Source: Meyerozyma guilliermondii (Eukaryota). From it: 64,000 nt of DNA. The notes under the pieces were generated by a model. It did not search any database, was not told the DNA's origin, and saw only the letters and a list, made by a program, of their open reading frames with translations. Location: NCBI GenBank assembly GCA_051546255.1, contig CP128815.1:372001-436000 (forward strand), in the 5' to 3' direction. A program made the translations under genes and the position numbers. Shown here piece after piece: positions 8,165-44,787 of this stretch; the stretch's first letter is position 1; every line of letters starts with the position of its first letter.

Positions 8165-11100
8165 TAACCTTAATGACGACAATAAACGGCTATTCAAGCA
8201 CATTCCTCATTTCAAAATTGAAAATCATAATAAAACCTGTACGAATTACATAACTAAGTTCTCGACAGTGGTAGTCCCAGAGAGGAAATGTCGTGATAAC
8301 TCAACGACATATTATATACGTGAACAATCAATTTCGGTTGAATATAATATAGCTTAAGACCTAGAACACGATCCAGTGCTTACATGGCTCGAACACCGAA
8401 CCACCGGCAAACCCGGCATATCACAATTTACTATACAATGGACATGACTGTACTACTCGGCACGTCAACCAAAAAGTATAAGAGAAGGAGTAGAAATCTT
8501 CTTTGATCTGAGAAGACTTACTATGGCGAAAGGGTATACTATAGCTCTGAATATTTACATAAAAGAAACTAGTACCACTTAAAATATATATCTGAACCAA
8601 GTCAGTGGTTGGTAAAATAAACTGCCCCCGAATATTCCATTCTTTGACAAAGAGGATGTGACATTGGGTAGAAACTCAGTGGCAATAAAAACTGATCTGG
8701 GCGAAAGAATAAAGCTTGGAGAGAAGCTATACTCACCAAACCGTAGCGTTAGCTCCAATCACACGCGTCAAAACATAACTTCAAGACAAAATCGTACTCG
8801 TCGACTGCCAGATTGTAACTGAAAATGAATCAACATATGTCATTTGCAACTTCGCTCTTAGTGTAAGTCAGTCTAAGTGAGCCCTCTATCCTTGGGTTCT
8901 CAGTCAGGATGAACTCATTATATTCTCTTTCATCCGTGAGATTGTCCACACATTACACACTATAATGTCGTTACCATAGATGCTTAGTGAACAACCAACC
9001 AATATTAGGTGCTGTACGCACCTATGGCTAACAGTGCTGAATCCATGTTTCTTTCATAATGCGAAAATGAGAGAACCTAACGCACGTACATGTTGCTTTA
9101 TTGACCAATTACCGGTAGCTATAATTGTATTATATAGGTTAGTAATAACTCTGCAAATCCTAGGAACTGCTTCACCTCAACCCTGACCTAAAGTTTCCCC
9201 CGAAGTTCAGTACATTATCGAAGACAGAAAAGACAGCCCCCACTTTGGACTCAAGCTTTTATGATATCCAGAAAGTTGTCTTACTAGTTCTTGTTGACAG
9301 GTGAATGACCAAAAAGACTTAACCAATTGAAGTCCTTGGTAAGTTTCAAGGAGGCAAACGCCCAAAGTGGGTAACCTCCCTTGAATTTCATTCTTCACTA
9401 GAAGTCGAGTTCTTTCATTATAGTTCAGGAGTCTCGGACCGTGGATGGATAACACACACGTGCTTGCTCGCCTACCTTAAAGCCATACATTACTAGGGCT
9501 AATGATAAGGGTATCTCTTACATACCCATTTGTTGAATCCATCTCGGTCCAATTGGGTATATTTCAGCTGGATCATCGTATATTAAATTCAACGGCAACT
9601 GCTTGCTCGAGAACTGTACAATGACAGTTTAACAACGGCCAGGCTCTAATGTGGTTGGCAAAATATAATGCGCAGGTAAGTTCCGAATTGCTTGTTTCTT
9701 TTTACGAAAGAAACACATCTTTCATGTGTGATGTTCATCGAAAAGTAGTCATCATTCTATAGTTTTAGTCAAATATGTAGTGACATACTTATTTTCAAAG
9801 GAGTTGTGCTTGATGAAAATTATTAGAAAATGACTTTATTTTACACCGGACAATCAATCTTGTATCATCATATGATTGGTTTGAATCGCAAACTTTACAT
9901 GAAAAAACGATCAAACAATGTATGACATGTTGACTGATTGAGGCAACTAAAAAGCCACTCTCTGGTCCTTCTCAGAACTTTGCATCAGTGATGTCTATTA
10001 TATATATCTTATAGAGAATGTCTACTATACCGTGCTTAGTAGTTTCTGCTAGTTTTAACCGGAGTAGAACCACTGTTAAGGGAATATATTCAATGTATTC
10101 TAGTCGCCTCTTTCAATTTTTTGGTACATATTCTATTGATCGCTTGCTTCAAATGGTTAACATACTGAGCGCTTATTTGTTGTGCCTCAAAGTTTTTTGC
10201 TTCTCTGGTCCTTTTCTTCGATAAAGGTGAATTTGAGCTCTAATAGAGCCCCTAACACAAAAGCTTTGTTTACATTACCAAGGACGTTATTCTTAGGTGA
10301 TGTCATGAATAGAAGGATGCAGATGAACTTTCTCTGCAGAGTTACTTCATCAGTTATATGACATACGTGATGCGTCTCATTTTCTTGTGTTGCAGAATGT
10401 TGCCGCCGACAAGGTATCGTAACGCTCTTCTGAGGTCCTAAACTCTAGCTTTTTCTACGTAACGTGTGTCATTTATATGGAAGCTCTGTTGACTGTTCAC
10501 TTTCACACGCATCCGACACTGCATACCCATTGGTTGAGTGGATAGCTACAGGTTTTACCTGTACAGGGTACAAATTATATAAGGTTGAGACGGAACAGAG
10601 GTAAACGGTCTTGAAGTTTTCGCGTACCTTCTTTTTTCTCTCTGATAATTCATACTTGCTGTTCCCAATTTGCATTGGTAATAAGACACTCTATTTCGAG
10701 AGCAAAATGTTTCATATTTCTCTGGTAGAAAACATGCAGCTGATTACGTTCCTTTCATAAAAGAGCATAAGATATCAGAAACAAACTTAAATGTTAACGT
10801 AAATTAGCTTCTACACCGTTCGTAGATATTTGAAATACTGCCCAAGAATCGATAGTTTTACTCAATTTACGGACTACAATCACTGCGAGCAGCACTAGAG
10901 AGCGATAGCGGTAAACTTTTGTAGTTCGTGACCAACAATTCGGTAGATCTGCGTTCTCATAATTGAAACGATTATCACACCGCTGAAAATCGTATGTATA
11001 AATTTTTGGCAGATTCTATTGAGATCGACTTGATTATGTATGATCGTTGAAGTCGGATTATGCATGATAACGCATTTAGATTCCGCTTTTGCAATGAAAA

Positions 11101-11433
11101 CGATAGCCATCAGTAAAAAACTGCAAGCGAACGACTTAATTTTCCAAGTGAATAACGGACCGGCTATTTGTAAACCTTCTTCTTCATACATTGAGATTTA
11201 GTTTCCAATTGACTCGAAAGCAGTAATGATGAAAATTTGGGTACTGCGATTATCGTATACAACCCTTATCTTATCGCATCTTTCCTCTAGAAAAGTTCCG
11301 TTCCTCTTTATAGAAGTTCCGCTAGTCTCACGGATTTCCCGCCAAGGTGATGCCGATTGTATTGCAAGCCCCTAACTCGGGCGACGTAAAAATATCACAC
11401 ATAAAAGACCTTTAGTCCCGACGTACGACCAAT

Positions 11434-13083
11434 ATGTTTGGACTAGGTGAAGACACCAAGCTTATAGAAGAGGTACCAGGTACCATCAACTTGGTTGATA
11501 TGCAAGGTGTGCTTGAAGTCAAGGGTACCAATGGTAAAATCATTTTGCACCCTCAACCAAGCTCCGACTTAAATGACCCACTTCGCTGGCTGCCTATCAA
11601 AAAGGAGTATCAAGTATGTTTATTATCCTTTTGGGGCTTTATGCAATCGGTATCAACCGTCTGGAGTGGACCGATATGGTCGCTATGGGTTGAAGAATTT
11701 GGTATCACATACAGCCAGCTCAACACTCTGAGTGGTTTATGTTTTATTTTTATTGCAGTGGGATGCGTGGTTCTCCAGCCATGTGCCTTGAAACTTGGAA
11801 AGCGTTTCGTATATTTGATGTGCACTTTATTGCAAATAGTGGGAAACGTTGTCTACGCAAATACCGCGGGAGTAAGCCAGTTGTACGCGGCGGCGTCGAT
11901 AGTTGGATTTGCGTCCGCTCCGATGTTTTCGTTGATCGAAATTTCATGCACAGACATTTTTTTTCAACACCAACGGGCGTTCAAGATTTCCTATGTCGTC
12001 TTTTCTCTTTATGGTGGAGTTGCTCTTGGCCCATTGGCAACTGGGTACGTGACCGATGGCGTTGGGTGGAAATGGTGTCCATACATCATGATCATTATCT
12101 TCAGCATAATGTTTATTGTCCAGCTCTTTACGTTGGAAGATTCAACATACAGAAGATTGGAGACACCAGAAGATCTTCAAAGTAACATTTTGGAGCAAAT
12201 TAGAAGTCACATGAGCCAAAAGATTGAAGCTTTAAAGGTTGGCTCTCCAAAGATCGATAAGTCCGAGGTGATAATCAATGTCGATGATGATGATTCCCTT
12301 GACTCTACAATACCGAAACTTTCGTACTGGCGCCGCATGAGAATCTTCTCGACTGAGCATGCAGATCCACGAAAGCTACGATGGATTGTGTTCAAGCCTT
12401 TCTTGTTGTGCTCTTTTCCGATTGTTGTGTGGTGTGGAGTTTTACAAGCAGTTCAACAGATGTGGCTTGCGTTGCTTCTGAGTACACAATCAGAGTTTTA
12501 CTCAAGTAAACCTTACAATTTTTCCACCTCCAAGGTAGGCTTAACAAATTTGTCCACTTTAGTCGGAATTATTTTGGGAATTTTCTATGGTGGTTGGTGT
12601 GTTGATAAGATGACCATATACCTAGCAAGGAAGAACAAGGGTATCATGGAGCCTGAGTTTCGCTTATGGAGTATGCTTGTGCCAGTTGCTGTGAATCTTG
12701 CTGGTTTACTCGCTTATGGTTTGGGAATTCTGAACCAGCTCAGTTGGGCTCTACCAGTTATATTTGGACAAGGATGTCTCGGGTTCTCAATGGCATCTAT
12801 CACGGGTATTGCGTACACGTATTGCACAGATAGTTACCCCAATCTCGTCAACGAAGGAATCGTGTTCATATCATTTGTCAACAATGGTTTGGCGACAATC
12901 TTTACCTTTTTCATCAGCAATTGGATGGAACGAGACGGTTTAGTTTTAATGGCCTGGATGATGTTTTTGATCGCTCTTGGAGTTACTGGGAGCTTTCTAA
13001 TCTTCATTTTGTTGGGCAAAACGTTTAGAAGAAAAGGCAAGAACCTTTATTATAAGATAAGTGAGTTGGGTGAGACCCACTAA
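11434..13083 (+). CDS. Major facilitator superfamily transporter, HOL1-like
   Basis: VPGT...LHPQPSSD.NDPL.W N-terminus, about 12 hydrophobic segments, G.MEPEFRL motif. Confidence 0.85.
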   Translation: MFGLGEDTKLIEEVPGTINLVDMQGVLEVKGTNGKIILHPQPSSDLNDPLRWLPIKKEYQVCLLSFWGFMQSVSTVWSGPIWSLWVEEFGITYSQLNTLSGLCFIFIAVGCVVLQPCALKLGKRFVYLMCTLLQIVGNVVYANTAGVSQLYAAASIVGFASAPMFSLIEISCTDIFFQHQRAFKISYVVFSLYGGVALGPLATGYVTDGVGWKWCPYIMIIIFSIMFIVQLFTLEDSTYRRLETPEDLQSNILEQIRSHMSQKIEALKVGSPKIDKSEVIINVDDDDSLDSTIPKLSYWRRMRIFSTEHADPRKLRWIVFKPFLLCSFPIVVWCGVLQAVQQMWLALLLSTQSEFYSSKPYNFSTSKVGLTNLSTLVGIILGIFYGGWCVDKMTIYLARKNKGIMEPEFRLWSMLVPVAVNLAGLLAYGLGILNQLSWALPVIFGQGCLGFSMASITGIAYTYCTDSYPNLVNEGIVFISFVNNGLATIFTFFISNWMERDGLVLMAWMMFLIALGVTGSFLIFILLGKTFRRKGKNLYYKISELGETH

Positions 13084-13569
13084 CAGCTCCAATACAAGTC
13101 CAACACGTTTGTACAAAAAATCCAAGAAAGAGAGATAGCCTCCATTCACCGTTTCTTTTGGAGGAAGTCATTGTATTCTTAGTAGCATGTCATTAGTGGA
13201 AAAAGATGGGTCGCACTAATAAAGACCCAAATTGATATGTGAGGAATGATATGAGTATTGTCCTTTAGTTTGAGAGAGAATGTCTCCCTGTAACAATATA
13301 GGGATAGGACGTGGAAATTGTATCTCTAATTGTAATGTGGCAAGTGTCCAATAGAGACTGATTCGCAGCCCGGTCAAAATGCTCTGCTGCAAGGTATCAT
13401 AGACAGAACACTATCAGCGATTGAACCTTGAAGAACTACTCAGCTCTATCTCGTTGCATCATAAGCTTTACACCTCCTTAAGCATAATGCTATGAAATTA
13501 AATCAAGGCGCCTTATCGGAACCTAGTCTCTTCGCGTGTGGCTTTATCTCTATACAGTACCGTACTGTA

Positions 13570-13896
13570 CAGTATTTTCCACAAAAAATACGCATCCGGA
13601 AGCTTTTAAATTCGCGGGCCGAAGCTTCAAAGTCGCAGAGTCGCCGTTGTAAATTCGTCGTTCTCATCTCATAAAGTCGCTCGCAAGGATTTCAAGTTCG
13701 CCATCAATACGATCATTAAAGTCACCTCAACTTGAATTAAATTCGCTACCAACCAGTGAACAATTACGCTCAACATAGAATTCAAATTCGCTCTCTGAAT
13801 TCTGAAATTCGTTCACGACAAGAGCCAAATTCGTTGTTTGTTTGCAGTACATACGAAATGATTATGAAGTTCTACGAATCTTGCTAAAAAGTACTG
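13570..13896 (+). mobile_element. 327-bp MITE-like element (Tc1/mariner/pogo-type ends), copy 1
   Basis: TA|CAGTATTTTCC...AAAAAGTACTG|TA; imperfect TIRs starting CAGTA; near-identical inverted copy at 18044-18370; no transposase coding capacity. Confidence 0.8.
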
Positions 13897-14582
13897 TATA
13901 GTGTAGAGATTTAAAAATAGTTGTGCAGTCCTCTGTGTGCAGTACACTGGCCCTGTTATGGTTTCGGTAATTTTCAAAGCCAATTTCTAATTCATAGTAC
14001 ATACACTAAACTAACGATTCAGCCTCTGATAACTTCTCTGAGGCGAGAACAAGCACAATTTTACCAAAATTTTGGAGGTTTTCCATTCAAAATGAGAATT
14101 TTGATCAACCATAAAACCACTTTAGTCGCAAGAAATCCACAATAGAATCTCACTGGTGGAAAGACAAAGTGAGACAAAGACGTGGAGTTTAATGGAGTAA
14201 CCTTGGAAAGTCAATTATGGTGAACCAAGAATTTGCAGCCAAAAATTGGGCTTCAAGAAAAACTCCAGGTAATGCTAAACTAGCAGGAAGAGATTCATCA
14301 GTCGTTCTATATCTCTTCATTGAGCTAATTCTAGAATCTTAGTCGGAGTTTATACATTGATCTTTGTACAGGAGTCTTCTGAGTCATTTTGGCTTCATCA
14401 GAAAGCTAAGAATGGTGCACTTTAGTTAGACACATTATATAGATAATAGCATTAATTTCTATTTCATTGTTACCATTACTTGTCGCATGTGATGAATAAT
14501 GCCAATAAGTACTTTTTCTAACTTCTTTGTAAAGTGTATACTACCCCTTTCTATTCTACGTCATAAATCTTGCAGTATTAAA

Positions 14583-14617
14583 CGCCGTTATATTTTCGCC
14601 GTTATTAACGCCGTTAT
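14583..14617 (+). promoter_or_regulatory. Triple CGCCGTTAT direct repeat upstream of the OYE gene
   Basis: Copies at 14583, 14597, 14609; a partial GCCGTTAT at 14799. Confidence 0.45.
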
Positions 14618-14950
14618 AGGGCCTACGGCGCTTACCTGCACAGAGTAATTTTGACAGCTCCGACTCCGAAACTAAACGGTCGAAAAATCCAAATTTTCAT
14701 TCTGCTAATTAATCTGACTACTTCGACTCTCTTCCGTCATTCTCTAATCAATTTTGTACCGTTCTTTTCTTTCTTCGCTAACTCCGTTGCAGCTTTGTGC
14801 CGTTATCTTAACCGACATTACCTCATCGCGCGTCGGCTTATAAATGTCAATGTGAGCCGCCGCAACCGTCGCACCATTTAAGGGCGCGACTACAACGGTA
14901 TATCCACCAAGGTATTTTATTTTGTACCCATCCCATTATGTAACGCCCTC

Positions 14951-16171
14951 ATGCTGGCAATCAAAGTTAGACCCCTCGGGGACACAAAGGTGTTTGAGCC
15001 TATACAGGTGGGAAAGAATACTCTTTCCAATAGACTTTTCATGTGCCCAACTACAAGACTCAAGGCTTTAGAAGACGGTACTCCATCGAATTTGGCATTG
15101 CAACTTTATGACGAAAGAAGCAAATTTCCCGGCTCGCTCGTGACAACTGAAGGAACTTTCACTTATGATGAGGGTCAAGTATGGGAAAGAACTCCAGGAA
15201 TTTATACTGAAAGACATATTGAAGCATGGAAAAAAATTGTCGATAAAGTTCATCAGAACAAATCTTTCATTTCACTCCAGTTGTTCAATTCGGGCCGTGT
15301 AGCCGACCCAACCATTGCAGACAACAAGAATCATCCATTTGTTGCTCCATCGGCTATTTACCATGATGAGGAAACGAAAAAAGCTGCCATTGCTGCTGGC
15401 AATCCTTTGCGAGAAATGACCTTGGATGAAATCCACGATATTATTAACAACAAGTACCCCAAAGCTGCCCATAATGCTCTCAGAGCCGGGTTCGACTATG
15501 TCGAAGTCCATGCTGCAAACGGCTACCTTCCCAACCAATTTATTGACGTTGCCAGTAATCAGCGCACTGACCAATACGGTGGTTCCATTGAAAATAGAGC
15601 CAGATTTGTGTTGGAAATCATTGACAAATTGACCGCTGAGATTGGTGCCGACAAGATTGGACTTAGAATTTCTCCATGGTTGACATTCCAGGGCATGCTG
15701 ACCAAAGGTGCAGAGATCGACCCATTGACCACTTACAGTTACATTTTACACGAATTGGAAAAGAGAGCTCAGAAGGGAAACAGAATAGCCTATGTGTCCA
15801 TTATCGAGCCTAGAGTCGATGGAAACTCTACCGTCAAGAAAGAAAACCAAGTTGGTGATAACTCGTTTGTCTACGATATTTGGAAAGGAACAGTTTTGAG
15901 AGCGGGTGGATACACTTATGATGCCCCAGAATTCAAACGAGTTGAAACCGATCTTGCTAACGATAGAACAGTCATTGGTTTCTGTCGTTACTATATCTCC
16001 AATCCTGATTTGGTTGAAAGGCTTAAAAATGGCTGGGATCTCCAACCATACGACCGGCCCTCTTTTTATAGAAGCAACGATTACCGCTACAATACGTACT
16101 CGTTCCATGGAGAGCCCCCTAGAGATGAAGAAGCCGGTAAGAATAGAAAGCCTGAGCCAATTGCTGCTTAA
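14951..16171 (+). CDS. Old Yellow Enzyme NADPH dehydrogenase (EBP1/OYE2-like)
   Basis: PTTR, GFDYVEVHAANGYL (His/Asn/Tyr active site), NQRTDQYGGSIENRARF, ISNPDLVERL motifs. Confidence 0.95.
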   Translation: MLAIKVRPLGDTKVFEPIQVGKNTLSNRLFMCPTTRLKALEDGTPSNLALQLYDERSKFPGSLVTTEGTFTYDEGQVWERTPGIYTERHIEAWKKIVDKVHQNKSFISLQLFNSGRVADPTIADNKNHPFVAPSAIYHDEETKKAAIAAGNPLREMTLDEIHDIINNKYPKAAHNALRAGFDYVEVHAANGYLPNQFIDVASNQRTDQYGGSIENRARFVLEIIDKLTAEIGADKIGLRISPWLTFQGMLTKGAEIDPLTTYSYILHELEKRAQKGNRIAYVSIIEPRVDGNSTVKKENQVGDNSFVYDIWKGTVLRAGGYTYDAPEFKRVETDLANDRTVIGFCRYYISNPDLVERLKNGWDLQPYDRPSFYRSNDYRYNTYSFHGEPPRDEEAGKNRKPEPIAA

Positions 16172-16651
16172 TAGAGATAGATATGATAAATAAATAAGTG
16201 AAGGTACTGATGGTTTAATGTTAGATGGAATAACTTTTTCGTATTTTGAAAAACTAACTTTAGATATTAGATCAGGCAACTATCAACCAAATAGTAATGT
16301 GTGTACGGCTATAAGTCTCTATACGGATGTAGTGAAAGAGTAGATATTTCTTGACTTGGTCAATGGCTGCGAAATATTTAGGAGATGTTGCAACCACTTT
16401 AAAATCTTCTTATCTTGAGAATCTAAACCATGGAGTACTTCTCACAAATGACTTTTGAAATTGGTCTTTTATGAAACTATATAGTGATACGATCCAATAT
16501 AGGCATACTTTCGTTAGTTCCTACTCGCGTACAGAGCTAATTATCGAACTAATTCGTTTACTACTCTGGATTCAATTAAAAATATTCATTAATTTCTTAG
16601 TTACTGGTCCACTTGATTTCTAAATTGTTTTGAAATATTTACAATTTTGTC

Positions 16652-16873
16652 TCAATCTTTTGGTTTACTGTCTTCATCTTTATACTCATTCGGATCATAT
16701 CCATAATATTTCATTATAACGTCAAAGGATTCACCTTGCTTCCCGCAAAATGTTCGATATGTTTCATCATCTACGGCCAACTTTACCGAGTATGCATATA
16801 CACACCCCAATATACCATGAAACGGTGTCATTAGCAAGTAAGGTACAATCGATATAAGGTCCCAGTTTGTCAT
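16652..16873 (-). CDS. 73-aa putative membrane microprotein (paralog of 17216-17410)
   Basis: ATG at 16873 (MTNWDL...); hydrophobic N-half; ungapped similarity to neighbouring small ORF. Confidence 0.6.
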   Translation of the reverse strand: MTNWDLISIVPYLLMTPFHGILGCVYAYSVKLAVDDETYRTFCGKQGESFDVIMKYYGYDPNEYKDEDSKPKD

Positions 16874-17215
16874 TGATGAGAATTTACCGATGCTTTGCTG
16901 AGGAAATACAAAAAGAAAATACTGAAGGAATAATTTGCGGGAATTAACGTGATTATCTGTCAAAAAATCACATACAGGCTCGACTATTAATAGAATTTTG
17001 CCACTGTGCTAGATGAAATCGGCTCAATTGTATTAGGGTATAGCGTATTATTCTACATTTGTATCAATATTCCACAACTTGATGAGTATTCTTTCATGAA
17101 TGCTATTGCGTTTTCACTAAAGTGTATAATAGATTAAGCGAATTGTCAAAATTTACAGCACCGTTCTTGCAGAGCTACGCAAGTTCTTCTTTCACACGAA
17201 GCTTCTTATTATCAT

Positions 17216-17410
17216 TTACTGCTTACCTCCATCACCCTTATCGCCCAAAAAGTATCTCATAAGTACTCTTAAAGATTCATTTCGTATCTCGCAATGTTTT
17301 TGATAAGTTTCTTGGTCTACGCCCAACCTTATTGTGAAGCCGTATATAAACGAACTAACAAGGTAAGGGGGAGTCAATACTACCAAAGGGATGATAGTTA
17401 GGAAATTCAT
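17216..17410 (-). CDS. 64-aa putative membrane microprotein (paralog of 16652-16873)
   Basis: ATG at 17410 (MNFLTIIP...); shares I.P....TP, Y.....L.VD.ETY...C....ES..V.M.Y pattern with neighbour. Confidence 0.6.
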   Translation of the reverse strand: MNFLTIIPLVVLTPPYLVSSFIYGFTIRLGVDQETYQKHCEIRNESLRVLMRYFLGDKGDGGKQ

Positions 17411-18043
17411 GGCTTCATGCACTAAAATTTCTGCTCGTAAGGTAAATGCGTACTATTTATGCAGTGACTTTGAAATCGGTATGCATAATGCGTCTGCATC
17501 TAAATTTAACCACCCATTGTGCAGACGCTAAAAGTCAAAGTGTGTATTTAGGCCGCAAAAGTTATTGGTGAATTTAATATACGATCAGACGACTGTAAGG
17601 CGATAGTTATCTAATTATAGGTCTAAAATTTTCTATTCGATAGTTATTTAATTACTCATTCAGGTGCCACATGATATGCATGAATTCTCTCCTGTCAAAG
17701 TGCCGTCACGCCGCACTTGATGCATGAAGAATGCATGCTTGCATTACGCATAATGGAAAAGTATTACCATTTGATCGTACGACCCGACTAGAGCGCTATT
17801 TTTGTAACCTTAGTGGGCATAAATTCAACGTATTAAGATATCCCGTCGAATTCCAGAACGACATATGAAATGGTGCTTCGTATCAGAAGACAGTGAACAC
17901 GTGATCCCGGCTTGTGTCTATAAAAGTCTTTAATTACTATAATAAAGTGCGCAGTACGAACCTCTTTTTTTCAGTTGTGTGAACCTGCGAAACTGTTTTT
18001 AATTGTATTTTCACACCGGCAGACTCAACCAGAAGTCAGCATA

Positions 18044-18370
18044 CTGTACTTTTTAGCAAGATTCGTAGAACTTCATAATCATTTCGTATGTACTGCAAAC
18101 AAACAACGAATTTGGCTCTTGTCGTGAACGAATTTCAGAATTCAGAGAGCGAATTTGAATTCTATGTTGAGCGTAATTGTTCACTGGTTGGTAGCGAATT
18201 TAATTCAAGTTGAGGTGACTTTAATGATCGTATTGATGGCGAACTTGAAATCCTTGCGAGCGACTTTATGAGATGAGAACGACGAATTTACAACGGCGAC
18301 TCTGCGACTTTGAAGCTTCGGCCCGCGAATTTAAAAGCTTCCGGATGCGGATTTTTTGTGGAAAATACTG
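18044..18370 (-). mobile_element. 327-bp MITE-like element, copy 2 (inverted relative to copy 1)
   Basis: Reverse complement of 13570-13896 with two mismatches found by eye; TA at 18042-18043 and 18371-18372. Confidence 0.8.
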
Positions 18371-18833
18371 TATTTAGGTCGTTTAACGACTTAGGACTAT
18401 ATTTACGATACAACTTACACCGTACAGCAGCTTGTAGTCCTGCATGCATTTGGCTGCTATAAACATTTTTCTAGGAATGCATAGTCGTGAGTGCAATGAA
18501 AAGCTGAAAGTGTCGTTAGCGCCTTATCTAGAATGCGCTAAGTAGCTCAAGTTCGAGGAGAGAAGTCGAAAATGCACCAGGCGACATAGCATAAAGTCCT
18601 AAAGTCCACGTGGGTCGGCCGCGTGATTATGTAATCATAGTTCTAATTGCGAAAGCCATCACCCACGTTCGCTGTGTCTTACATTCTTATCTTAATATTT
18701 GCAACGAACGCAAAACATGGAAGGTACAGATATTATTGTTTCTAAGATCTAAAACTGGAAATATATTTTATTGTGAAACATCTCTCAAGAGAAGGGCCAG
18801 AAGACTGTCTGTGCTAAGCGGACAAATATTTCA

Positions 18834-20162
18834 ATGAGCATATTAGAAACTGTGTCTCCATTCATGTCTCCTCATGATCGTAGCGTTCAGCTAAGTGGCC
18901 CAGGTGGCCCACAGATACATCTGAAGGTGGATCATAAGGGACCACATTTTGAGAGATCAAGTGATGAGTACAAGAAAGCCGATGTAAATCGATCGTATAA
19001 GAAGTTTGAAAGGCAACAAGCCTATACCGACCTCACTATTGACCCATTCATTTCCCGATATATCAGGTCTCCCCATCTAAACACACCATTCAATTATCAC
19101 AACGTTTTCTTCGAATCGGTCAAGGATGATCTAAACAGTCAGCTGTTTGATTTATACCAAAAATACCTCATTCAAAAGGATAATTACCATATCACCAAAC
19201 CAGCAAAAACATCGACCCACGATGAAATCAACCTTTCGCATGAACTCAATTTCACCAGGAAGAGGATCGATAGCGAAACGGATTCAACTACACCTCAGCG
19301 TACATCATTAGACCACCCTATAACTTCAAAGCTGGAAATCACATATCTCCCAAGAAATTTCATGGATTGCGATATAAATAACTTGATAGACCTAATTTCC
19401 AGGTTGTTGCGGTCGCTTATTGCGTTGAATGATAAGAATGTCCACCCGTCGATCTCAAATCCTCAGAAGGGTTCTAAAGCCACAAATCAAATACTCACCA
19501 GATATCACTCGCGAACGCCTCCTGCCATCTCAGCCCATACTTACTTGTCTCGTCTCACACGCTTTAATAATTTGAACCCCGGGACGTTATTGACAACAAT
19601 ATACTATATAGATTTGTTGTCTCATCATTATCAGCCGTACTTCACATTGAACTCGTGGACTGTGCATAGATTTTTGCTAGTTGCTACGATGCTATCGCAA
19701 AAGCTGCTTGAAGATTTTTTCTACACAAACGAGCATTATGCCAAAGTGGGCGGTGTGGCTGTCAGCGAATTGAACTGCTTGGAGCTAGACTTTCTTGAAA
19801 GAGTCGATTGGCGCTGCGTGCCAGGGAAGGTTGGCGAGAACAATTTGTTCTCCATAAAATACGCCAAAACTACCCTCGACTTGTATTATGCTCAGTTGGT
19901 CTCGCTCATGGGACAACCATCCAACGGTTCATCAGTTACGACATACAAGATCAAGCATTCTGATGAAGATGGAGTACTGGAAGATGAAAGCAATGATGAC
20001 ATATTTGACGACGAAGAAGAAGACGAAGATGCGATGGAAGATGAGGTATTTGAAACTGCTGGACAAGGAACTAGAGCGATGTATGACCATTTGGGCTATA
20101 GTGTGGATGGATCTTCATCGCCTCATTTGAAGCGTCGTTATTCTAAAAATTTTGCTTCATAG
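18834..20162 (+). CDS. PHO80: Pho85 cyclin Pho80
   Basis: LP..F..C....L..LISR.L, LTRYHS..PP.IS, YYIDLL, FTLNS.T.HRFLL, N.HYAKVGG cyclin box most like Pho80. Confidence 0.85.
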   Translation: MSILETVSPFMSPHDRSVQLSGPGGPQIHLKVDHKGPHFERSSDEYKKADVNRSYKKFERQQAYTDLTIDPFISRYIRSPHLNTPFNYHNVFFESVKDDLNSQLFDLYQKYLIQKDNYHITKPAKTSTHDEINLSHELNFTRKRIDSETDSTTPQRTSLDHPITSKLEITYLPRNFMDCDINNLIDLISRLLRSLIALNDKNVHPSISNPQKGSKATNQILTRYHSRTPPAISAHTYLSRLTRFNNLNPGTLLTTIYYIDLLSHHYQPYFTLNSWTVHRFLLVATMLSQKLLEDFFYTNEHYAKVGGVAVSELNCLELDFLERVDWRCVPGKVGENNLFSIKYAKTTLDLYYAQLVSLMGQPSNGSSVTTYKIKHSDEDGVLEDESNDDIFDDEEEDEDAMEDEVFETAGQGTRAMYDHLGYSVDGSSSPHLKRRYSKNFAS

Positions 20163-43182: not shown

Positions 43183-44787
43183 CTACTCAAACTTGATCTT
43201 CTTCGCCGTCTTGGTCATGTCGACGTCTTTGAAGAATGCACCGTAAGCCAGATGGCTTTTTTTCTTGGTGTGACCGCCAAACTTGAGCAACTCATCGGGC
43301 ACTGGCTGACCTGCTCCTCGCAAAACATTCATCAATGCTCCACTCAAGTGTTTTTCGTGCTCGGTGAAAAGGGTGTGTGCAATACCTGTCTGGCCCGCGC
43401 GCCCAGTACGGCCGATACGATGCACATAGTCCTCCACGGTAAGTGGGAAAGTCAAATTTATCACCACTTTGACATTGGGAATATCCAAGCCTCTGGCAGC
43501 AACGTCGGTGGCCAAGAGAAGATTCGAGTCGCCACGCTTGAACGAATCAAGTGCAGAAGTTCTTTGCTGCTGCAGCAAGTCGCCGTGGATGGCTGCAACA
43601 TTGAACCCGGAACGACGCAACATGGCTTCCACTCTGGTGGCTTCTTTTTTGTACAAGGCAAAAACCAAGATTTTTTGGTCCGAGCCATATTGCCTCAACA
43701 ACTGGAGCAATCGGCGCTCTTTATCACGAGGATCCATCACCTCCACTGTCTGGGTAATCCGCTTATTTGCAGCCAATTCGTCCCGGTTTCCAATCGACAC
43801 CTTGACGGCTTTGTTCATGAATGTTGCCGCGAGCTCACGAACTTCTTTGGGCCAGGTGGCTGTGAACATGAGTGTCTGTCTTTGCTTGTTGGTGCATCCA
43901 ATGATGTTTTTGATATCTTCTTCAAAACCCTTTTCCAACATTCTGTCGGCTTCATCAAGTACAAGATAGTCAATTGTGCTCAAATCCACCGCCCCGTCGT
44001 TGAGAAGATCCACCAATCTTCCGGGTGTTGCAACTACAACACTGGCAGTCTTCACCGCCTTGATCTGCTGGTCTTTGGGCACTCCTCCATAGATAGCCAC
44101 ACAAGTGAGTCCACAGTTCTTGGTGAGCATGGTCAAGTTGTCGTAAATTTGAAGCGCAAGTTCACGGGTAGGAGAGATACATAAAACCCGAAGGCCCTTC
44201 TTGTTGTCGGTGATGATGTTGTTGATGGCAGGCACTCCAAATGCAAAGGTTTTTCCCGACCCGGTCTCGGCAACTCCGACTACATCATCACCATTGAGAA
44301 GATACGGCCAAGAAGCAGATTGAATAGGAGTTGGTTTGGGAAACTTCGTCACTATAGGTGCTATCTTCAGCTGGAGCTGGACATGGTCGAACGAAAGAAT
44401 TGGTCTAAACCCAAGTTTGTGAGGATCTTCAACGGTAACCTCGTTGGTCTGGAGAAACTCATCGATTTCGCTCTGAGGAAGCGCAGTCAATTCCGCGGCC
44501 TGGGTATATCCTGAAGAAGAGGACGACACGGTAGAAACGGTAGAGTCAGTCTCTTCAGTCTCTTCAGTCTTTTCCTTCTTCGCCTTCTTCTCCTTCTTCT
44601 CCTTCTTCTCGTTCTTCTCCTTCTTTTCTTTCTTTTCTTTCTTTTCTTTCTTTTCTTTCTTTTCTTTCTTTTCTTTCTTTTCTTTCTTCTCCTTCTTTTC
44701 CTTCTTCTCCTTTCCCTTCACCTCATTGTCGTGCTTGGGCTTCTTCACCTCCACATCGCCAGATTCGTGCTTTCTTTTGGAACCCAT
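43183..44787 (-). CDS. DBP3: DEAD-box rRNA helicase Dbp3
   Basis: KKE repeats, [23 protein letters not shown]-terminal [22 protein letters not shown] at 44787. Confidence 0.95.
44571..44712 (-). repeat. Coding 9-nt tandem repeat (KKE)n in DBP3
   Basis: AAGAAAGAA/AAGAAGGAG units in tandem. Confidence 0.9.

Follow-up and report, generated by a model that had tools for sequence, protein, structure and literature searches.

Can a cut-and-paste transposon carry a whole host gene to a new site in a yeast genome? The question is raised by a 64,000-nucleotide stretch of Meyerozyma guilliermondii DNA (contig CP128815.1 of assembly GCA_051546255.1, positions 372,001 to 436,000; hereafter the window, numbered from its first letter), in which two 327-bp arms in inverted orientation enclose an intact old yellow enzyme (OYE) gene and two microprotein genes. 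The near-identical, transposon-like ends enclose what is a second OYE copy, the original of which lies on another chromosome; this arrangement suggests that an entire host gene was transferred by a transposon of the cut-and-paste kind. Several features of this locus had been described earlier from the letters alone (the sequence-only reading), and we return to them where our results bear on them.

Two inverted arms bound a 4801-bp unit

Exact alignment places the arms (Table 1) at the two ends of a unit that measures 4801 bp, arms included, with an interior of 4147 bp between them. The arms differ at 2 of 327 positions, that is, at element position 21 (13590 versus 18350) and at element position 326 (13895 versus 18045); at the second of these, copy 2 has CTG in place of CAG at its inner terminus, and the outer ends are intact. 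The alignment agrees with the sequence-only reading on all three counts: two inverted, TA-flanked 327-bp copies with two mismatches, one mismatch altering the inner terminus of copy 2, and identical outer termini enclosing the 4801-bp unit. The arm pair is the sole long inverted repeat among the three inverted pairs in the window (the others are 28–39 nt long and ~75% identical), and a sensitive blastn search (self-match E 5e-169) found no third arm copy in these 64 kb. Separately, a 39-nt stretch of an intergenic gap (9562–9600) has a 74% inverted match in the cassette interior (17560–17598), which is probably due to chance.

The arms are non-coding, as stop-to-stop frames that overlap either of them are shorter than 70 aa. 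The earlier statement that no transposase is encoded in the window agrees with a Pfam scan of 33 window open reading frames (ORFs; 6 + 27), which recognized no transposase family and left out the right-edge gene that starts at ~62970. The terminal 20-mer of the arm has no match in viral contigs and five in metagenome contigs; all five were rejected as chance matches without homology beyond 23 bp. Nothing matched when the arm was compared with plasmids, and Rfam and tRNA scans returned nothing.

Each arm carries a phased motif array behind one end

Along each arm an AAATTCG(C/T)-like motif recurs ~13 times in a single orientation with a mean spacing of 21.9 bp (element positions 17, 39, 60, 82, 104, 125, 149, 170, 193, 215, 236, 258, and 280), and 10 of these copies have at most one mismatch; for exact AAATTCGY, 12 of the 19 matches in the window fall within the arms. 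A plain 7-mer count is a weak statistic (at least six copies occur in 6 of 1000 dinucleotide shuffles), so a phase-aware test was used instead, one that lets any 8-mer compete. The arm contains a chain of 12 motif hits at 20–24-bp steps; the longest chain in shuffled sequences is 6 (n = 200), and 192 of 195 tiles of the real window reach at most 5, the three tiles set apart being those that include part of an arm or of a coding tandem with a 9-bp unit.

The opposite, inner end of the arm has an inverted motif 16 bp in (one mismatch) and a weaker one at 37 bp (two mismatches). Both ends of an arm therefore consist of CAGTA, a spacer, and the motif, with the long array behind one end only; the array-backed ends both point outward. 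The altered terminus belongs to an inner end. As a terminal inverted repeat (TIR) of the single arm this amounts to ~24 imperfect bp (identity at 8 of the 9 outermost bases and the motif at 17/16 bp). The arm shows no fold-back (z-score 0.60 for folding, with 72 of 100 shuffled sequences doing equally well), and a hairpin reading was rejected on that basis. The earlier label of MITE (a miniature transposable element with inverted repeats) thus fits only loosely: the arms are short (327 bp, below ~600 bp) and non-coding, as the label implies, but their TIR is short and imperfect and they do not fold.

By analogy, the motif copies are putative transposase sites two helical turns apart. The analogy is drawn because the Lemi1 proteins bind the TIR and the subterminal motifs of Emigrant (PMC1636448) and because Fot1-like TIRs consist of two direct repeats (PMC2836289).

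TA flanks and a footprint-like stack suggest a Tc1/mariner-type element

For each arm and for the whole 4801-bp unit, the longest flanking direct repeat is the dinucleotide TA, which would be the target-site duplication (TSD). Two other element classes were rejected. A solo long terminal repeat has TG...CA ends and a 4–6-bp TSD, and the sequence shared by the arms starts and stops at TA-CAG/CTG-TA; hAT elements and Mutator-like elements (MULEs) generate a long TSD, and the longest flanking repeat here is 2 bp.

The left target TA closes a stack of three TA-CNG units, TA-CAG-TA-CCG-TA-CTG-TA; nowhere else in the window do two or more units of this form follow one another (chance roughly 2e-7). 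TACAGTA and TACTGTA are given as footprints of Sleeping Beauty (bioRxiv 10.1101/659086), although a review prints the footprint in a different form (PMC2874221). If a footprint is taken as TA, an element end, and TA, the stack holds two canonical units and one variant. It reads as three earlier insertion-excision rounds at the left TA, one of them non-canonical, by a Tc1/mariner-like element; alternatively, two TAs enclose a palindromic remnant of 13 bp. Either reading points to earlier transposase activity at the site. CAGTA ends are regarded as a hallmark of pogo elements. The sequence-only reading had called the ends Tc1/mariner/pogo-type, and the TA flanks, the CAG ends, the footprint-like stack, and the subterminal motif array are in accord with that call.

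The enclosed OYE gene is a displaced duplicate

The protein matches PF00724 with E 5.5e-90 over profile positions 1–340 of 342, its best PDB matches are OYE2.6 variants (E ~1e-143 over residues 1–404), and it keeps H187, N190, and Y192, which we take to be catalytic residues. The cargo had been described as an OYE reductase with its promoter; the enzyme is borne out by the intact gene and its family match, and the region upstream is a presumptive promoter. A 9-bp motif, CGCCGTTAT, occurs there three times (14583–14617, at 12–14-bp spacing, ~340 bp upstream of the OYE start) and provides candidate transcription-factor sites; eight patterns tried for Yap1/Cap1-type or CGG-pair sites found none upstream of OYE. 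CTG codons align with serine in relatives; this and the nearest named OYE homologs place the host in the M. guilliermondii complex. Comparisons that reach beyond the window draw on protein records and the lengths of the contigs that carry them.

Strain ATCC 6260 holds two relevant genes. PGUG_00219, on a 2,092,950-bp contig, has no differences from the window OYE over residues 1–311; PGUG_05760, on a 439,277-bp contig, is 98% identical to it (9 of 406 residues differ). Because both occur in one strain, they are paralogs, not alleles. The PGUG_00219 record is frameshifted after residue 311, which reflects either an error in sequencing or a lesion particular to that strain; no such break affects the window copy. 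The window OYE groups at 90% with PGUG_05760 and a protein from Meyerozyma sp. JA9. A paralog search scored 8000 candidates and gave 134 matches; among the 120 of them listed, PGUG_05758 (63% identical) and further paralogs (56–58%) lie on the same small-contig class as PGUG_05760.

D. hansenii and P. stipitis have OYE clusters that correspond to PGUG_05760–05763 (PMC2784038); the same paper labels PGUG_05758 an alcohol dehydrogenase, a label contradicted by its 63% identity with the window OYE. This cluster correspondence, together with the older paralogs found there, identifies the small chromosome as the ancestral OYE home. Sequence comparison thus shows the window OYE as an ectopic copy derived from the ancestral cluster and foreign to its present site; as a 98% duplicate of an ancestral-cluster gene, it is unlikely to be native between its two flanking host genes, a major facilitator superfamily (MFS) transporter gene and a cyclin gene.

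The microproteins are paralogs in a small yeast family

The two microproteins had been called orphans, and that description does not hold: they are paralogs of each other (31% identical over 54 aa, E 2e-14) within a small yeast family. Three homology searches accepted 6 of 6, 5 of 7, and 10 of 998 candidates, including Yamadazyma tenuis CANTEDRAFT_115858 and two JA9 genes that share one contig; the two of seven HMM matches that were discarded as spurious are a repeat protein (P0078) and a bacterial protein (P0079). A profile search of viral contigs confirmed none of 32 candidates; in prokaryote genomes 1 of 45 candidates for microprotein 1 passed, a 13-residue Leucobacter match that was rejected. 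Neither microprotein has a Pfam hit, and no ESM Atlas hit exceeds 0.81. The predicted structure of microprotein 1 consists of two helices, the first hydrophobic (pLDDT 79), so the model is compatible with membrane anchoring of the microproteins.

Read-through ORFs of a JA9-like lineage match the window from the last part of microprotein 2 through the spacer and microprotein 1 to ~120 bp further on; because the match runs across both genes, the pair is an old unit. Microprotein 1 has a mosaic pattern of similarity. Compared with P0062 (1.05-Mb contig), 25 of residues 1–26 match and nine differences follow; compared with P0056, of the small-chromosome type, 15 differences fall in residues 1–26 and only four later. 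The pattern suggests an exchange near codon 26, in either direction, with the caveats that a sister species may be the source of P0062 and that P0052 (0.40-Mb contig) has a window-like N-terminus.

The distant relatives of the microproteins (P0076, P0090, P0077, and P0080–P0089) are almost all on contigs of 0.5–4.5 kb, and two of them, on contigs of 3204 bp, seem to form a tandem pair; this is how they would lie if they resided in repeat-bounded or multicopy elements.

A non-autonomous cassette is the favored explanation

We consider it probable, with moderate confidence, that a non-autonomous IS630/Tc1/mariner (ITm) cassette, possibly pogo/Fot1-like, carried the OYE gene and the microproteins to this site. 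The only two arm copies in 64 kb enclose the sole gene shown as an ectopic duplicate. Two copies of one element bracket foreign cargo, and the outer ends are intact, as in a composite transposon; neither arm encodes a transposase, although the bacterial definition asks for one in at least one arm.

Mechanistically, a transposase encoded elsewhere would bind the motif that is repeated every two helical turns along the arms, pair the two outer ends in a synapse, and relocate the whole 4.8 kb, including the OYE gene, the region upstream of it, and both microprotein genes. The outer ends are the likely partners because they have the full array and an intact CAGTA; the inner ends have one or two sites, and one of them lacks CAG. 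The unit would have landed in the interval separating the MFS gene from the cyclin gene, at a TA that had previously been used and vacated, and either a recent duplication or conversion of one arm by the other would have maintained their near-identity. For the host, the outcome would be that some isolates possess an additional ene-reductase gene that evolves independently.

The occurrence of the parts in other assemblies can be compared with this explanation. Summed contig counts for the flanking genes are 53 (MFS), 57 (cyclin), and 47 (RRP6); those for the microproteins are 12 (microprotein 2 types), 10 (window-like microprotein 1), and 38 (small-chromosome type). Among the 15 of 30 OYE cluster members listed, window-type contigs number 6 and donor-type contigs 33. 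These counts hint that the cargo is present in about one-fifth of the assemblies. Proteins of the MFS and cyclin genes both occur on read-derived contigs of 13,083 and 35,093 bp and, ~4% diverged, on 683,438-bp contigs; no listed cargo protein has 13,083, 35,093, or 683,438 bp as its longest contig. The pattern is consistent with most isolates, and one sister lineage, having an empty site. The right-flank 22-mer has no match in metagenome contigs.

Several points weigh against transposition of the unit as a whole. One is age. Between the two OYE copies, 9 of 406 residues are different, as many as separate them from the JA9 protein (8 and 6 of 382), and each copy has private changes; the arms differ at only 2 of 327 bp (0.6%). 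The OYE duplication therefore looks older than the arms, and a single recent capture does not explain the locus without gene conversion or arm renewal: either the arms were homogenized or renewed, or they arrived after OYE was duplicated. In addition, since either arm alone is bordered by TA at both ends, finding TA at the ends of the entire unit adds no information. Of the three footprint units, CCG departs from the canonical form, and the duplicated segment may or may not end at the arms. The contig counts depend on gene callers and on the collapse of 98% paralogs, and equal contig sizes are not proof of the same contig, as they may coincide. Finally, a transposase, a third arm copy, and an empty site were not seen as DNA in the window or in the viral, metagenome, prokaryote, and plasmid scans.

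A broader version is a tentative and rather unlikely extension: a still-mobile ITm cassette family in CTG-clade yeasts, polymorphic among isolates and having re-used the same TA several times, with arms built almost wholly of phased transposase sites, the microprotein pair as resident passenger, and a complete host OYE picked up by recombination between microprotein paralogs near codon 26. Hints in this direction are that relatives of the microproteins in other yeasts are mostly on 1–4.5-kb contigs and that JA9 has two copies on one contig.

Alternative explanations

One alternative is an older, transposase-independent segmental duplication of OYE and the microproteins, followed by two insertions of a small non-autonomous element, one on each side, through local hopping, so that the unit never moved as one. 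We regard this as possible though doubtful. The greater divergence of OYE (9 of 406 aa) than of the arms (2 of 327 bp) speaks for it, each arm has its own termini and a TA on both sides, Tc1/mariner elements are known to hop locally (PMC2874221), and the stacked footprints could mean that single elements used the site repeatedly. However, two independent insertions would by chance have to flank the displaced gene, with the motif-rich, intact ends pointing outward and no insertion elsewhere in 64 kb. Inverted repeats 4 kb apart can be homogenized by conversion, and such conversion would remove the age conflict.

It is improbable that the arms are instead an inverted repeat maintained so that the interior of 4.1 kb can flip-flop (phase variation). 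Their 99.4% inverted identity would permit recombinational inversion, which is known for inverted repeats at the MAT loci of methylotrophic yeasts (PMC5499181); however, a switch would have no obvious output, because each gene has its own upstream region and the near-identical arms keep the junctions, and the TA flanks and footprints indicate a transposon origin.

Still harder to sustain is a regional centromere of the Candida tropicalis type, with homogenized inverted repeats and a core that happens to hold genes. The repeat-core-repeat layout, the ~4-kb core, the oriented repeated motif, and the lowest bulk GC of the window (0.348 at 16–17 kb) recall such a centromere, and the CEN6 core of C. 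tropicalis has two ORFs (PMC7292649; PMC2997560 was also used in this comparison). However, the repeats here are 0.33 kb, whereas those of C. tropicalis are 3–4 kb around a mostly ORF-free core of ~3 kb (PMC7292649); the core here holds three genes, including an intact, recently duplicated gene that is seemingly absent from many assemblies; and GC at third codon positions (GC3) has no trough at the cassette (long genes 0.42–0.49 over 0–36 kb, one 0.37).

Least credible of all is an assembly artifact in which the small-chromosome OYE region was misplaced via a repeat: assemblies can misplace segments that are bounded by repeats, and among the OYE and microprotein sequences in databases several combine parts of the two paralogs, but the window OYE has nine consistent private residues and the cargo proteins occur on ~2.09-Mb contigs of four sizes (2,095,439; 2,092,950; 2,088,565; and 2,087,459).

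Genomic neighborhood and significance

Table 1. Coordinates of the features of the cassette and its flanks in the window.
Feature	Position	Strand	Remarks
MFS transporter	11434..13083	+	left flanking host gene, outside cassette; Pfam
Stack of three TA-CNG units (CAG, CCG, CTG)	13553..13569	+	ends in left target TA
Left arm	13570..13896	+	327 bp, CAGTA ends, ~24-bp imperfect bipartite TIR
TA at inner end of left arm	13897..13898		flank comparison
OYE upstream region	13899..14950	+	TATAAA at 14839; triple 9-bp repeat; putative promoter
OYE2.6-type old yellow enzyme	14951..16171	+	intact, 406 aa; PF00724; ectopic duplicate of PGUG_05760
Microprotein 1	16652..16873	-	73 aa; hydrophobic N-terminal helix and second helix (model); mosaic similarity
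Microprotein 2	17216..17410	-	64 aa; paralog of microprotein 1
TA at inner end of right arm	18042..18043		flank comparison
Right arm	18044..18370	-	327 bp; outer terminus intact, inner terminus CAG to CTG
Right target TA	18371..18372		flank comparison
Pho80-family cyclin	18834..20162	+	right flanking host gene, outside cassette; PF08613

The right flanking gene had been named PHO80; its match to PF08613 places it in the cyclin family, and the specific name goes beyond that match. Between RRP6 and the MFS gene, 3.3 kb (8165–11433) lack any ATG-initiated ORF of at least 100 aa, with GC down to 0.34; this gap, unusually long for the genome, is a possible centromere or regulatory region. At 132–1355, a GH88-like glycoside hydrolase gene adjoins a fungal transcription factor and an aldo-keto reductase (weak Pfam matches); GH88 is mostly bacterial, and the gene is possibly an old horizontal acquisition. 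An ordinary 9-bp tandem repeat (44532–44748) codes for a KKE tract at the N-terminus of a DEAD-box helicase. The GC3 of long genes is mostly 0.42–0.49 in 1–36400 and mostly 0.48–0.61 in 37000–61600, a broad compositional step.

If the explanation we favor is true, a composite unit that relocates an intact ene-reductase gene would be a route to accessory-gene gain without tandem or subtelomeric duplication, in a species that is used in biocontrol and biotechnology and is also an opportunist. The phased 22-bp array is a precise binding-site prediction with which the transposase may be found, and the arm pair could serve as a compact gene-delivery tool.

Comparison with known systems

Our search found no literature on this element or on Meyerozyma DNA transposons; Repbase and most subscription papers were outside it. 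Among related reports, a composite structure was excluded for Tc1-OP1 by its authors (PMC9977792), Cirt elements are little characterized (PMC7175516), the supplement of PMC5751038 does not name Meyerozyma, and PMC3020949 and PMC4672557 provide background only.

Among the nearest systems described are the Dici elements of Diutina catenulata, ITm elements that share with the cassette a yeast host, a CAGT start, a TA duplication, a short TIR (8 or 33 bp), a length of ~4 kb, derived MITEs, and extra ORFs, including a small membrane-targeted one (PMC13469147). Unlike the cassette, Dici has its own DD34E transposase and no recognizable host enzyme, and its termini diverge after CAGT; no phased array is described in the passages covered, and the main text and most of the supplement of that paper do not mention Meyerozyma. 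The same source describes the composite-like FUN-MUPI-2 of Mucor piriformis, which is also TA-flanked and has two inverted full ITm copies at its ends (6.8 kb); its arms, unlike those of the cassette, are 1627-bp autonomous elements with transposases, and its host is a Mucoromycete.

For the arms themselves, the Fot1/pogo-like elements Trem, Aft1, and Tan1 offer a TA target and 42–49-bp TIRs of two direct repeats (PMC2836289), comparable to the two motifs within ~45 bp of each end here; the Lemi1/Emigrant MITE offers subterminal motifs, which are transposase-bound in Emigrant (PMC1636448). These elements have near-perfect TIRs with 17-bp repeats and few subterminal sites, whereas the cassette arms are filled by ~13 short sites on a 22-bp lattice. 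For the cargo, the closest solved structures are those of OYE2.6 from Scheffersomyces (Pichia) stipitis, which has the motif HAAHGY where the window OYE has HAANGY.

In bacterial composite transposons and in the Drosophila Ising transposable element between foldback elements (PMC6431247), two element copies mobilize the DNA between them, as is proposed for the cassette. Unlike the bacterial composites, neither cassette arm encodes a transposase. In Tn5 and Tn10, an impaired inner end favors joint movement of the two copies. MULEs have a TSD of 9–11 bp; that of the cassette would be TA, the longest flanking repeat being 2 bp, which sets it apart from Pack-MULEs. Pack-MULEs resemble it in that host DNA lies between long TIRs and is moved in trans (PMC6431247). 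Full-length gene capture is called exceptionally rare for Pack-MULEs and Helitrons in the same source, whereas the cassette cargo is a full-length, intact gene. The cassette would work like a composite transposon or a Pack element but falls outside the strict definitions of both, because its arms lack a transposase and its TSD is TA.

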